Positions 16,150 through 43,271 of a stretch of 64,000 bases of DNA are shown here, piece after piece. Positions within the stretch are counted from its first letter, which is position 1. Every line of letters starts with the position of its first letter. The translations under genes were made by a program, and so were the position numbers. This stretch comes from Escherichia coli (lineage in GTDB: Bacteria > Pseudomonadota > Gammaproteobacteria > Enterobacterales > Enterobacteriaceae). The notes beneath the pieces were generated by a model. That model ran no database searches and had not been told where the DNA came from. It worked only from the letters and a program-made list of their open reading frames with translations. The stretch is from assembly GCF_022846255.1 (NCBI RefSeq), contig NZ_AP025682.1; one strand, given 5' to 3'.

Positions 16150-16342
16150 AACTACTCCGAACCGCCCCGACCGTTACCGGTGTAGTTTTCAGGGAGATAC
16201 TGAAAAGGAAAATGACAAAAACCACAATGTCATGAGGGAGCGGAGTGTAGCAGTTTTTGTGACGCAGCGCATAAATTATCCCTGTGACTGGCGTAGCTAA
16301 AATTCTTAGCCATACTGGACAACTCCCCTATGGAGTCATAAT

Positions 16343-16364
16343 CTTAATCAATCATTTGATTAAG
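16343..16364 (+). promoter_or_regulatory. candidate CecR (YbiH) operator: perfect inverted repeat cttaatcaa-tcat-ttgattaag
   Basis: 9-bp perfect inverted repeat with 4-bp spacer immediately upstream of and overlapping the cecR start; typical TetR-family autoregulatory operator. Confidence 0.55.
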
Positions 16365-16377
16365 AATGGACTGTGCG

Positions 16378-20912: not shown

Positions 20913-22019
20913 ATGTTTCATCGCTTATGGACGTTAATCCGCAAAGAGTTGCAGTCGCTGCTGCGCGAACCGCAAACCCGCGCAATTCTGATTTTACCCG
21001 TGCTGATTCAGGTGATCCTGTTCCCGTTCGCCGCCACGCTGGAAGTGACCAACGCCACCATCGCCATCTACGATGAAGATAACGGCGAGCACTCGGTAGA
21101 ACTTACTCAACGTTTTGCCCGCGCCAGCGCCTTTACCCATGTGCTGCTGCTGAAAAGCCCGCAGGAGATCCGCCCGACCATCGACACACAAAAGGCGTTA
21201 CTACTGGTGCGTTTCCCGGCTGACTTCTCGCGCAAACTGGATACCTTCCAGACCGCGCCGTTGCAGTTGATCCTCGACGGGCGTAACTCCAACAGTGCGC
21301 AAATTGCCGCCAACTACCTGCAACAGATCGTCAAAAATTATCAGCAGGAGCTGCTGGAAGGAAAACCGAAACCCAACAACAGCGAGCTGGTGGTACGCAA
21401 CTGGTATAACCCGAATCTCGACTACAAATGGTTTGTGGTGCCGTCGCTGATCGCCATGATCACCACTATCGGCGTAATGATCGTCACTTCACTTTCCGTC
21501 GCCCGCGAACGTGAACAAGGTACGCTCGATCAGTTGCTGGTTTCGCCCCTCACCACCTGGCAGATATTCATCGGCAAAGCCGTACCGGCATTAATTGTCG
21601 CCACCTTCCAGGCCACCATTGTGCTGGCGATTGGTATCTGGGCGTATCAAATCCCCTTCGCCGGATCGCTGGCGCTGTTCTACTTCACGATGGTGATTTA
21701 CGGTTTATCGCTGGTGGGATTCGGTCTGTTGATTTCATCACTCTGTTCAACACAACAGCAGGCGTTTATCGGCGTGTTTGTCTTTATGATGCCCGCCATT
21801 CTCCTTTCCGGTTACGTTTCGCCGGTGGAAAACATGCCAGTGTGGCTGCAAAATCTGACGTGGATTAACCCTATTCGCCACTTTACGGACATTACCAAGC
21901 AGATTTATTTGAAGGATGCGAGTCTGGATATTGTGTGGAATAGTTTGTGGCCGCTACTGGTGATAACGGCCACGACAGGGTCAGCGGCGTACGCGATGTT
22001 TAGACGTAAGGTGATGTAA
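20913..22019 (+). CDS. ybhR: ABC-2 type transporter permease YbhR
   Basis: 368-aa ORF, paralogous to YbhS. Confidence 0.92.
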
Positions 22020-22391
22020 CTTCTTATCTTTCGCCAGCAAAGACACTACCGCAGGGCCGGCAAGGATTGCCAGCCCTGCAATTGCCAGCACAAAGTTGTT
22101 TTCCAGTACGCGGGACAACAGCCACAGAACAATCAGCGCTGCGCCAAAATACCAGGTCGTGGTCAGCTCTTCCAGCACGTCTGCCACCTCACGCCAGCGT
22201 TGCTCGGGGTGGCGCTGAAACACCAGCATCATCACTACCGTGACACAATACAGTGCGCATAATCCTACGCCGACGTGAACCAGAGTTTTACTCATCCAGC
22301 CCACCACCAGCAGCGCCACTACCAGTAAATGCAACATAATCTGCCAGCAACTTAGGCCAGTTGCGACACGAACACGTTGTTGCCACTTCAT
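21981..22391 (-). CDS. ybhQ: inner membrane protein YbhQ
   Basis: 136-aa hydrophobic ORF convergent with and overlapping the ybhR 3' end. Confidence 0.85.
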
Positions 22392-22439
22392 GGCTTCTCT
22401 CCTGAAGAATTTATCTCTACTTATTCAGAGTACCGAACT

Positions 22440-22457
22440 TTACGGAAAATTCCGTAA
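22440..22457. promoter_or_regulatory. perfect inverted repeat ttacggaa-aa-ttccgtaa in the divergent ybhQ/ybhP promoter region
   Basis: 8-bp perfect arms with 2-bp spacer; 49 nt upstream of ybhQ and 67 nt upstream of ybhP; binding factor unknown. Confidence 0.4.
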
Positions 22458-22523
22458 GACCGCACCTTTTTGTGACGCCGACTACACTATTTCAATGAGA
22501 TAAGAGGCAAAGACAGGAAAATT

Positions 22524-23285
22524 ATGCCCGATCAAACACAACAATTTTCGTTCAAGGTGCTCACCATCAATATTCACAAAGGCTTTACCGCGTTTAACCG
22601 ACGCTTCATTTTGCCGGAACTTCGCGACGCCGTGCGTACCGTCAGCGCCGATATTGTTTGCCTGCAGGAAGTGATGGGCGCGCACGAAGTTCATCCGCTG
22701 CATGTGGAAAACTGGCCCGATACCTCGCACTACGAGTTTCTCGCCGACACCATGTGGAGCGATTTCGCCTACGGTCGCAATGCCGTATACCCGGAAGGAC
22801 ATCACGGTAACGCCGTTCTTTCACGTTATCCCATTGAACATTATGAGAATCGTGATGTTTCGGTCGATGGTGCGGAAAAGCGCGGCGTGCTCTACTGCCG
22901 CATTGTGCCGCCGATGACCGGGAAAGCGATTCATGTGATGTGCGTACATCTGGGCCTGCGTGAGGCGCACCGTCAGGCGCAGCTTGCGATGCTCGCCGAA
23001 TGGGTGAATGAGCTACCGGACGGCGAACCGGTATTGGTAGCGGGTGATTTCAACGACTGGCGGCAAAAAGCTAATCATCCGTTAAAAGTGCAGGCCGGGC
23101 TGGATGAGATTTTTACCCGCGCCCACGGACGCCCGGCGCGCACGTTTCCGGTGCAATTTCCTCTACTACGTCTGGACAGGATCTACGTCAAAAATGCCAG
23201 CGCCAGCGCGCCAACCGCGTTGCCGCTGCGGACATGGCGACACCTTTCTGATCATGCCCCTTTAAGTGCGGAGATTCATTTATGA
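22524..23285 (+). CDS. ybhP: endonuclease/exonuclease/phosphatase (EEP) family protein YbhP
   Basis: 253-aa ORF with EEP-like motifs; first gene of ybhP-clsB-ybhN. Confidence 0.9.
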
Positions 23286-41009: not shown

Positions 41010-43271
41010 TTACATCTGACGGTTTTTATTGAAGTTAATCAAACTACCCGCCTTGATAATCTCGCGCTCTTCGGCCGTCAGGCTTTCCATATAGAGCGTG
41101 ATTTCCGTTACCGGCGCATCTTCATGGATCACATAACCTTTAAACGTCGTTCCAGGATTATCCAGCGCCGTTTTAATGCCAGGGATGTAAATGTAATCCC
41201 CCACTTCAAACGTTGGTGCTTCCGCCATTTGCAGCGGTAACATCCCCCAGTTGATGACGTTAGAACGGTAGCGTTTAGTCGCGTATTCCTCGGCAATATT
41301 CGCCAGACCGCCAATCACACGCTGGCAGCTCGCCGCCTGCTCACGCGCAGAACCATCGCCTGGTTTCACCGCATAGACCATGCTGCCAATTTCAGTTTGC
41401 AGCGGATCAATATGCTCCTGACCAGCAATCTGCTTAATGCGCGCAAACACCTCTGTCAGCTCGCTGACATTCCCCGCCAGACGCTGATTTTCCAGCTCAG
41501 CAGTCGCTTTACTTCTGCCAACATAACCGGGATCGCGGCGTGACAGGGTAAACTCCGCCAGACCAATCGGATTTGAACGATAAGAAGAGGTTTCACCGGA
41601 AGGAATCAGTTCGTCGGTGGTGGTGACTTCGTCGAGGATCTTCGAGCACACTTTGAGGACGATATTGTCAGTCAGCGCACCCAATTCCGGCCAGTCTTTG
41701 ATGTTCGGTCCGTAGATCAGCGGTTGCTGGGTCGCCCCTTTCACAAAGCCTTGATAGACGCGATTTTTATACGGCGTTACATCGAAGGCGTACTCCGGCA
41801 CGTTGTCCCAGCAATCGAGTTCGCTGGCAGAGGTTAAATAGCCACCGTTTGCCGCAGTCGCAGCGATAGAACGAGCGTCCATCAACGCCACCGCTGACAT
41901 CTGCCCATTAGCTGGCTTAGAGCCTTCGCGGTTCGGGAAGTTACGCGTGGTGTGGCGAATACTCAAACCGTTGTTGATTGGCGTATCGCCCGCGCCAAAG
42001 CATGGGCCGCAGAACGCGGTTCTGATGATTGCGCCTGCGCCAATCAAATCTGCTACCACACCTTTTTTGGCGAGATCCATAAACACCGGCTGTGATGACG
42101 GGTAAACCGCCAACGAGAAGGTATCGTTGCCGCAGGATTGACCGCGCAGCGCATTCGCCGCCGCGATGACGTTTTCGTAGTTACCGCCAGAACAGCCCGC
42201 GATAATCCCCTGCTGCACTTTCAGGCGACCATTTTCCACTTTATCCAGCAGCGAGAGTTTGGCTTTACCGTGCGCCACGCGTTCGGACTCAATTTCAATC
42301 TCACGCAGAATGTCGGTCAGATTCTGGTTCAGCGTGTCGATTTCATACACGTTGCTCGGGTGGAATGGCAGCGCAATCATTGGTTTGATGGCGCTTAAAT
42401 CAACACTGATGCAGCCATCGTAGTACGCCATTGGTTGAGGGTTAAGTTGGCAGTAATCCTGGCCGCGACCGTGCAGCGCCAGCCAGTTATGGACTTCTTC
42501 ATCGGTTTGCCAGACAGAACTTAAACAGGTCGTTTCAGTGGTCATCACGTCAACGCTGTTGCGGAAATCGGTAGAGAGCGCTGCAACACCGGGACCTACG
42601 AACTCCATCACTTTGTTTTTGACGTAACCGTTTTTGAACACGGCACCGATGATAGCCAGCGCCACATCCTGCGGCCCCACATACGGCGCAGGTTTTCCGG
42701 TCAGATGCACCGCAACCACGCCCGGATAGTCGATATCCCAGGTGTCATTAAGCAGTTGTTTTACCAGCTCGCCGCCGCCCTCACCGACTGCCATTGTCCC
42801 TAATGCGCCGTAACGGGTGTGGCTGTCTGATCCGAGGATCATTTTGCCGCCGCCAGCCATCATTTCACGCATATATTGATGGATGACCGCAATATGCGGT
42901 GGCACAAAAATACCGCCATAACGCTGGGCCGCCGATAAACCAAAAATATGGTCATCACCGTTAATGGTGCCGCCGACGGCGCAGAGTGAGTTATGGCAGT
43001 TGGTCAGCACATACGGCAGCGGGAAACGTTCCATACCGGACGCTTTAGCGGTCTGTACAATACCAACAAAGGTAATATCGTGAGAGGCTAATGAATCAAA
43101 CTTAATTTTAAGTTTATCCATATTACCAGACGTATTATGAGAAGAGAGAATAGACCAGGCAATAGTGCCTTTTTTTGCTTCTTCTTTTTTTATTTCGCCG
43201 GTGAAATGTTCTTCGGCAATTATTTCGTTATTGCTGGCGAGAAACACGCCTTTTTCAGATAACTTGATCAT
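41010..43271 (-). CDS. ybhJ: aconitase-family [4Fe-4S] hydratase YbhJ
   Basis: ORF track 41010-43295; 753 aa from MIKLSEKG; aconitase motifs (SDSHT, AGCSGG, CGPCFG cysteine ligands), C-terminal swivel-like domain. Confidence 0.9.

Follow-up and report, generated by a model that had tools for sequence, protein, structure and literature searches.

A strongly conserved palindrome, best described as a candidate orphan operator, in the overlapping divergent promoters of ybhQ and ybhP-clsB-ybhN in Escherichia coli

The window, a 64,000-nucleotide stretch of Escherichia coli DNA (contig NZ_AP025682.1), contains the short gap between two divergent transcription units, ybhQ on the minus strand and ybhP-clsB-ybhN on the plus strand, and within this gap lies a perfect palindrome at 22440-22457. 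The locus raises the question of whether this palindrome is the operator of a dimeric transcription factor, possibly one serving both transcription units, or whether its symmetry is incidental to the promoters in which it is embedded. On the sequence comparisons reported here, the site is most aptly regarded as a candidate orphan operator, strongly conserved and lying in overlapping divergent promoters.

The sequence reads ttacggaaaattccgtaa, that is TTACGGAA-AA-TTCCGTAA, and the two arms are exact reverse complements (100% complementary) around a 2-bp AA centre, in agreement with the perfect 8-2-8 inverted repeat of the original prediction. The K-12 coordinates of the palindrome are NC_000913.3 824564-824581. 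It is the sole inverted repeat in the 132-bp intergenic gap (22392-22523). The site had been placed at the centre between the two start codons and does lie between them, with 48 bp separating it from the ATG of ybhQ and 66 bp from that of ybhP; its centre (22448.5), however, is 9 bp off their midpoint (22457.5, from 22391 and 22524), towards ybhQ. First-order Markov simulations gave an expectation of 0.83 perfect 8-N2-8 repeats per 64-kb window and two were observed, the other being at 43098. The palindrome by itself is therefore within chance, and the case for its significance rests on conservation. A search of the genome for other copies had also been suggested; it was run on the window and on 766 kb of related loci, and no further copy was found at three or fewer mismatches. 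A dispersed palindromic repeat of the repetitive extragenic palindromic or enterobacterial repetitive intergenic consensus (ERIC) type does not agree with this distribution, since the element occurs once in the window and once at each orthologous locus. Note also that GGAAAATT is present twice, at the palindrome centre (22444-22451) and in the ybhP ribosome-binding site (22516-22523); the second copy is not kept in other genera and is probably a coincidence.

Conservation was examined in 80 species-level orthologous loci obtained from a YbhP scan of genome contigs, with per-position frequencies calculated from 62 non-redundant sequences. The original prediction had named an absence of conservation in orthologous intergenic regions as refuting; instead, the palindrome was exact in 51 of the 80 loci, had at most one mismatch in 72 and at most four in all 80. 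The majority base accounts for 92-100% of sequences at each of the 18 positions, and the mean information is 1.88 bits per position, as against 1.38 for the remaining intergenic region. By a neutral yardstick, the 47 four-fold sites of ybhP, the mean is 0.58 bits with a majority base of 58%, and 0 of the 47 sites reach 92%. The arms are conserved alike (1.90 and 1.82 bits) and the centre equally so, its AA being invariant, while the linkers beside the palindrome vary (1.12 bits at 22433-22438, 0.92 at 22458-22459 and 0.89 at 22477-22480). No other near-invariant block of the region is as long as the palindrome in Escherichia, Salmonella, Citrobacter, Enterobacter, Klebsiella, Kosakonia, Leclercia, Lelliottia, Franconibacter and others. 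In Kosakonia sp. S29 a symmetric double change (TTACAG...CTGTAA) was observed, and its relatives show one of the two changes only. Measured in this way, the palindrome is shown to be under strong purifying selection.

The surroundings of the palindrome are equally orderly. Positions 22427-22492 form a conserved module of fixed length, consisting of AGAsTA, a 6-bp linker, T plus the palindrome, a 2-bp linker, CCGCAyCTTTTTGTGAC, a 4-bp linker and ACTACACTATTT. Spacing is fixed in the orthologues, with 49-50 bp to the ybhQ ATG and 25 bp to the ybhP -10, and insertions all fall in the ybhP leader. Rahnella species, which have lost ybhQ, retain a diverged palindrome (2-4 mismatches) that is still 25-26 bp away from the -10 of ybhP. 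Decay to TTTTCGGAtAAtgCCGcAA was seen in Erwinia, Pantoea and Izhakiella, with the distance to the ybhQ-side AGACTA retained. The spacing to ybhP in Rahnella, together with the spacing to the ybhQ side in the Erwiniaceae, means that the element is tied to both promoters. Across the aligned loci the symmetry is seen to erode with phylogenetic distance, as that of factor sites does. Two further features of the Erwiniaceae loci were recorded (Erwinia, L087; Pantoea, L088). After ybhQ, cytochrome-b561-like and extracytoplasmic function sigma-factor genes replace ybhR (1-1317), and the decayed right arm belongs to another perfect repeat, the 7-3-7 GCCGCAA-AGA-TTGCGGC (1400-1440).

The relation of the palindrome to the ybhQ promoters was studied using published Cappable-seq data, which give plus-strand starts at U00096.2 823730, 823815 and 824105 (PMC4782308). 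These were converted to NC_000913.3, in which ybhQ is at 824630, by an offset of 777; the offset is validated by the first and third starts, each of which falls on a G exactly 7 nt past CATAAT or TATTTT. The second start is the proximal ybhQ start (Table 1). The palindrome occupies -11 to -28 relative to it, and the three outermost positions of its left arm double as the first three of the -10-like TAAAGT, whose complement ACTTTA is 79-100% conserved. The -10 of the distal start, CATAAT, is not conserved in other genera, being kept in few at most. A Salmonella peak from chromatin immunoprecipitation (ChIP)-exo at 879192-879232 adjoins ybhQ and is found in the RpoB and RpoD lists, the factor being assigned by column order. 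A scan of the region for a consensus sigma-70 promoter gave no match, which fits factor-dependent promoters. The third start (22139, minus strand; U00096.2 824105) is inside ybhQ, 252 nt past the ATG, with TATTTT as its -10, and would yield a ybhQ-internal or antisense-to-ybhR transcript. The genes ybhQ and ybhR are convergent with a 39-bp overlap and are described as an excludon pair (PMC12288877).

A second kind of ybhQ promoter may overlap the palindrome. On the minus strand, GGAATTT-N17-TCTGA resembles the promoters recognised by sigma-E (GGAACTT-N16-TCTGA), with its -35 inside the palindrome, and was one of two pattern matches in 128 kb (both strands of the window); the other, GTAACTT-N16-TCTAA, is at 41916-41944 on the minus strand. 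The N17 spacer and the TCTGA agree with the spacer of about 16 nt and the TCTGA-type -10 of this class, and in rpoE P2 and rpoH P3 the spacer is one base shorter than at the ybhQ site. The -35 matches GGAACTT at six of seven positions, the core C of GAAC being replaced by T. Sigma-E overproduction induces ybhQ 5-fold (PMC2731931), a response to the induction of sigma-E is documented for a ybhQ start (PMC7075262), and a Salmonella sigma-E ChIP-seq peak lies in the ybhQ/ybhP intergenic region (PMC4577112); ybhQ does not appear in the main text of a paper on 60 sigma-E promoters (PMC3326320). Among the orthologues, TCTGA is found in most genera including the Erwiniaceae and is lost in Kosakonia and Phytobacter, while the -35 is weakened to GGATTTT in four ybhQ-bearing species and is degraded in the Erwiniaceae too.

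On the ybhP side, a sigma-S-type -10 is predicted from conservation, C-TACACT being invariant in the 62 species save at position 22487. A C at -13 is a determinant of sigma-S recognition (PMC4447067). In EDL933 the RpoS dependence of ybhPO is 251-fold and 7-fold, the 251-fold value being that of ybhP (PMC2907692); ybhP is not in the RpoS ChIP-seq supplement of PMC4447067. In four orthologues with longer intergenic regions, each insertion is downstream of CTACACTATTT. The conserved C-TACACT, the RpoS dependence and the position of all insertions downstream lead to a predicted ybhP start at about 22495, relative to which the palindrome is predicted to occupy approximately -38 to -55.

Several observations concern the remainder of this promoter and its leader. 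The leader insertions (loci L074, L082, L065 and L048) measure 26-125 bp, and the one in Pseudocitrobacter (L074, 3850-3990) resembles an ERIC/intergenic repeat unit element (...AAGTGAACGAATCCCCAGGAGCGTACATAAGTACGTGACTGGGGTGAGCGAACGCAGCC...). The leader motif CAGGATAGTGAC is common to most genera; Escherichia has GAGATAAGAGGC instead (22497-22510), a replacement that could mean a lineage-specific change in post-transcriptional control. A plus-strand sigma-E promoter for ybhP (cGAACTT, 22433-22439) was rejected, as no acceptable -10 follows it at N14-N17 and the orthologues do not keep GAACTT (variants CGCACTT, CGGACTT and GCGGATT). The second conserved block, CCGCAyCTTTTTGTGAC, which separates the palindrome from the ybhP -10 and is nearly as well conserved as the palindrome itself, lies where a -35 and a spacer would be expected for ybhP, and is kept in Rahnella and the Erwiniaceae. 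The TGTGA of this block (22471-22475) resembles a CRP half-site, but a CRP site was also rejected; its partner half CTACA is poor and its centre would be at -16.5 of ybhP. The window has only one other exact copy of the 12-mer TTTTTGTGACGC of this block (16254-16265, cecR-rhlE intergenic region), and that copy, too, shortly precedes a -10-like sequence, CATAAAT.

The interpretation that we favour takes the palindrome, set within back-to-back promoters of fixed geometry, for the operator of a two-fold symmetric factor (homodimeric, of helix-turn-helix type), and in this reading we have about even confidence. A dyad with 8-bp arms, a placement adjacent to promoters and above-neutral conservation on both arms were all found. 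Recognised promoter elements cover about 10 of the 18 positions, namely TTA (within TAAAGT) and AAATTCC (GGAATTT on the opposite strand). The remaining eight (CGGA, 22443-22446, and GTAA, 22454-22457) are 92-100% conserved, are the mirror partners of covered positions and sit in the spacer, where promoters normally vary freely. Since known promoter elements leave these 8 of 18 conserved mirror positions uncovered, no other single explanation does as well as a symmetric dimeric regulator. A back-of-envelope estimate puts the occurrence of a perfect dyad with 8-bp arms in the conserved 65-bp module by chance, with spacers of 0-10 bp allowed, at about 1/100. The proposal of a dimeric-factor operator thus holds as regards the dyad, the conservation of both arms and the promoter position; some 10 of the 18 bases are shared with promoter elements, and we infer that a protein binds, which protein this may be, whether it raises or lowers expression, and where exactly ybhP starts. 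In geometry and half-site (T-A-C-G-G-A, 7-2-7 or 7-4-7), regulators of the LuxR/NarL type such as RcsB come closest.

The suggestion that one site could control both divergent transcripts is compatible with its position relative to the ybhQ start at 22429 and the predicted ybhP start. A bound protein would sit on the spacer and the -10 edge of the proximal sigma-70 ybhQ promoter and would also lie over the -35 of the sigma-E-type ybhQ promoter; from such occupancy of both promoters, repression or gating of ybhQ would be expected. With respect to the RpoS-dependent promoter of ybhP-clsB-ybhN, the protein would come directly before the -35 position, and might there either activate this promoter or block upstream contacts. 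It may tentatively be proposed that a regulator not previously linked to these genes, either a 'y' factor or a known one at a non-canonical site, reciprocally switches sigma-E-responsive ybhQ and RpoS-dependent ybhP-clsB-ybhN, and that this point of control over membrane lipids has been conserved since before the split of the Enterobacteriaceae and Yersiniaceae.

A number of points weigh against the operator interpretation. The entire 65-bp core at 22427-22492 is conserved, and part of the conservation of the palindrome is therefore owed to promoter elements. In the Erwiniaceae only about 5 of the 8 arm positions remain symmetric, and the element is 12 bp further away from the -10 of ybhP. The ybhP start used here is a prediction. 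The copy search described above produced no second site, and the literature searched, which did not cover RcsB ChIP studies, held no binding protein, ChIP match or match from systematic evolution of ligands by exponential enrichment for the region. The palindrome sequence itself was not found printed in a bacterial context in the literature searched.

The explanation that competes most directly is that the element is a composite of overlapping core-promoter elements with an incidental dyad and no dedicated regulator, the left outer bases being the ybhQ -10 TAAAGT, the inner right half the sigma-E -35 GGAATTT, and the A/T centre an upstream element of ybhP. The start at 22429 does have TAAAGT 7 nt upstream, the GGAATTT-N17-TCTGA pattern, with only one other match in 128 kb, does lie upstream of sigma-E-induced ybhQ, and the whole 65-bp region is conserved as a module; moreover, A/T-tract upstream elements are commonly needed by sigma-E promoters (PMC3326320). 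However, the sigma-E assignment accounts for only 7 of the 18 palindrome bases, its -35 is without the core C of GAAC and reads GGATTTT in four ybhQ-bearing species, and the TCTGA is lost in Kosakonia and Phytobacter. In addition, 22443-22446 and 22454-22457 are outside any recognised element, yet they are 92-100% conserved while nearby linkers vary, and an exact dyad would arise by chance in such a block only about once in a hundred times, as estimated above. A composite without its own regulator is thus regarded as unlikely, if the most substantial of the alternatives.

It could also be that the palindrome is an RcsB box, a phosphorylated RcsB homodimer on the inner ACGGAAAATTCCGT activating ybhP-clsB-ybhN in envelope stress and occluding the ybhQ promoters; this we consider distinctly unlikely. 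The RcsB-box consensus is TN(G/A)GAN4TC(T/C)NA, and it was checked here on the rprA, osmB and bdm sequences (Table 1). RcsB boxes are pseudo-palindromic and found at stress-induced envelope genes, in which they resemble the palindrome. The motif had been said not to be recognised as the site of a known E. coli regulator, and this calls for some qualification: its core GGA-AAAT-TCC agrees with RGA-N4-TCY at six of six positions, though its outer bases do not fit, both being wrong (A...T for T...A) yet conserved. Variation in the Enterobacteriaceae and Rahnella falls at R (G to A), at Y (C to T), at N and at outer positions, and never at G22445, A22446, T22451 or C22452, but in Erwinia, Pantoea and Izhakiella T22451 has given way to G or A. 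At activated promoters that are independent of RcsA, RcsB boxes abut the -35 and are centred at about -42 to -45. Like those of rprA and osmB, the present box would come directly before the -35 position, although its centre, at about -46.5 of the predicted start, is some 4 bp further upstream than the -42.5 of rprA, and the conserved footprint of 18-19 bp extends 2-3 bp beyond a 14-bp box. An inhibitor of LolCDE induces ybhP and clsB 12- to 33-fold, alongside rcsA, wca, yjbEFG, ivy, mliC and ymgDG; pure RpoS genes (katE, osmY) rise under the inhibitor too, however, so that RpoS alone could explain the induction. Any perfect palindrome would fit RGA-N4-TCY in register about 1/32 of the time, and the match was found post hoc. 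Finally, ybhP is missing from the RcsB-overexpression list (PMC2731931).

Other regulators were compared with the site. NarL/NarP sites share its 7-2-7 geometry (TACGGAA-AA-TTCCGTA, with TAC...GTA ends), and their consensus is TACYYMT-NN-AKRRGTA; the heptamer TACGGAA matches it at only 4 of 7 positions (GG for YY, A for T), no link of ybhQ or ybhP to nitrate control was found, and NarL/NarP was rejected. Operators of local repressors of the TetR-family type (15-20 bp) are similar in consisting of one perfect palindrome, 16-24 bp long, that overlaps core promoter elements in a short gap between divergent genes. They differ in that no regulator gene adjoins the site in the approximately 80 orthologous loci examined here. 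CecR (YbiH), a TetR-family protein encoded 6 kb away, has a motif of AT-rich repeats 7 nt apart (PMC6237786); it was excluded because this motif differs and an unrelated palindrome is present at the cecR promoter, and, as stated, the window holds no other match to the present palindrome at three or fewer mismatches. That unrelated element is a perfect 10-4-10 palindrome, TCTTAATCAA-TCAT-TTGATTAAGA, at 16342-16365, directly upstream of the cecR (ybiH) start codon, and it is probably the CecR autoregulatory operator, being an AT-rich inverted repeat as in the YbiH ChIP-exo description. Sigma-54, sigma-28, LexA, Fis, IHF, IclR/AllR, DeoR, EvgA, UvrY and LysR (T-N11-A) were compared by eye, and none fits the full dyad. 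The same by-eye comparison gave two leads only, neither of which fits the full dyad: CpxR (GTAAA-N5-GTAcT, minus strand, 22428-22445), and OmpR, by way of TTACGGAA, which occurs in the F4 site of ompF.

A further alternative is a role as RNA, in which the palindrome would form a hairpin within the 123-nt leader of the long ybhQ transcript and so affect stability, processing or translation. The distal start at 22514 does transcribe through the palindrome, the predicted stem of 7-8 bp has an energy of -8.3 to -8.5 kcal/mol (z of -2.6 to -3.3 against shuffles), and the double change in Kosakonia sp. S29 is compensatory. Against this, the distal -10 CATAAT is unconserved outside a few genera while the palindrome is conserved, Phytobacter tolerates single changes that give A-C mismatches, Rahnella retains the element without ybhQ, and the invariant central AA is not needed by a loop; a functional hairpin is accordingly judged very unlikely. 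The hairpin has no U-tract and is therefore not a terminator; a terminator scan called none at the palindrome and Rfam gave no match. That the palindrome arose by chance and has no function of its own is highly improbable, for while about 0.8 such repeats are expected per 64-kb window and a second is present at 43098, it is near-invariant over 80 species-level loci at which neutral sites are close to saturation.

The coordinates of the features discussed are collected in Table 1. The region is present at no less than 95% identity in 5423 of 5426 complete genomes. The window is not that of K-12, from which it differs by a single-nucleotide polymorphism at 22424. We know of no function for ybhQ. 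For ybhP-clsB-ybhN, a regulator table presumed to be derived from EcoCyc has ppGpp only (PMC10100675), and from this sole entry it follows that no factor is assigned to the operon. One orthologous contig, NZ_AADV02000322.1 (L004, 2043 bp), was deposited as Crocosphaera watsonii WH 8501. It encodes a YbhP 100% identical to that of the window and also has a partial ybhQ and the exact palindrome, and this cyanobacterial assembly is almost certainly contaminated with E. coli DNA.

Table 1. Features of the ybhQ/ybhP intergenic region, with the RcsB boxes used for comparison. Positions are those of the window, except for the rprA, osmB and bdm boxes.
Feature	Position	Strand	Basis or remark
ybhQ, inner-membrane protein, YbhQ family	21981..22391	-	Annotated in matching E. 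coli RefSeq records
ybhP, endonuclease/exonuclease/phosphatase family, first gene of ybhP-clsB-ybhN	22524..23285	+	RefSeq annotation
clsB, cardiolipin synthase B, overlaps the ybhP stop codon	23282..24523	+	RefSeq annotation
Proposed operator, 8-2-8 palindrome	22440..22457	none	Sequence and conservation far above neutral
Inner 14 bp, ACGGAAAATTCCGT	22442..22455	none	RcsB core 6/6, outer T/A 0/2; centre about -46.5 (predicted)
Proximal ybhQ start (U00096.2 823815)	22429	-	Cappable-seq (PMC4782308)
-10-like TAAAGT of the proximal ybhQ start	22437..22442	-	7 nt upstream of 22429
Distal ybhQ start (U00096.2 823730), G, 123-nt leader with the palindrome as RNA	22514	-	Cappable-seq
Distal ybhQ -10 CATAAT, overlaps the ybhP start codon	22521..22526	-	Sequence
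Sigma-E-like ybhQ promoter, GGAATTT (22453 to 22447)-N17-TCTGA (22429 to 22425)	22425..22453	-	Predicted start about 22418
Predicted sigma-S-type ybhP -10, C(-13) at 22482 and TACACT at 22483-22488	22482..22488	+	Conservation
Second conserved block, CCGCAyCTTTTTGTGAC, between palindrome and ybhP -10	22460..22476	none	1.74 bits per position
rprA RcsB box, TGAGACGAATCTGA	-49 to -36		0 mismatches, centre -42.5
osmB RcsB box, TAAGATGATTCCTG	abuts the -35 TTGATA		1 mismatch
bdm RcsB box, CAGGACTAATCTTA			1 mismatch

The palindrome is not a new kind of element, and its value lies in a gap filled in the regulatory network. Of the three cardiolipin synthases of E. coli, the one encoded by clsB is the least understood, and little is known of the control of clsB and its partner genes. 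A strongly conserved regulatory site without an assigned factor, in the best-annotated bacterial genome, offers a cheaply testable handle on that control. Through the site it might be learnt whether, at this promoter pair, envelope-stress signals (Rcs, sigma-E) meet those of stationary phase (RpoS) in the remodelling of membrane lipids.

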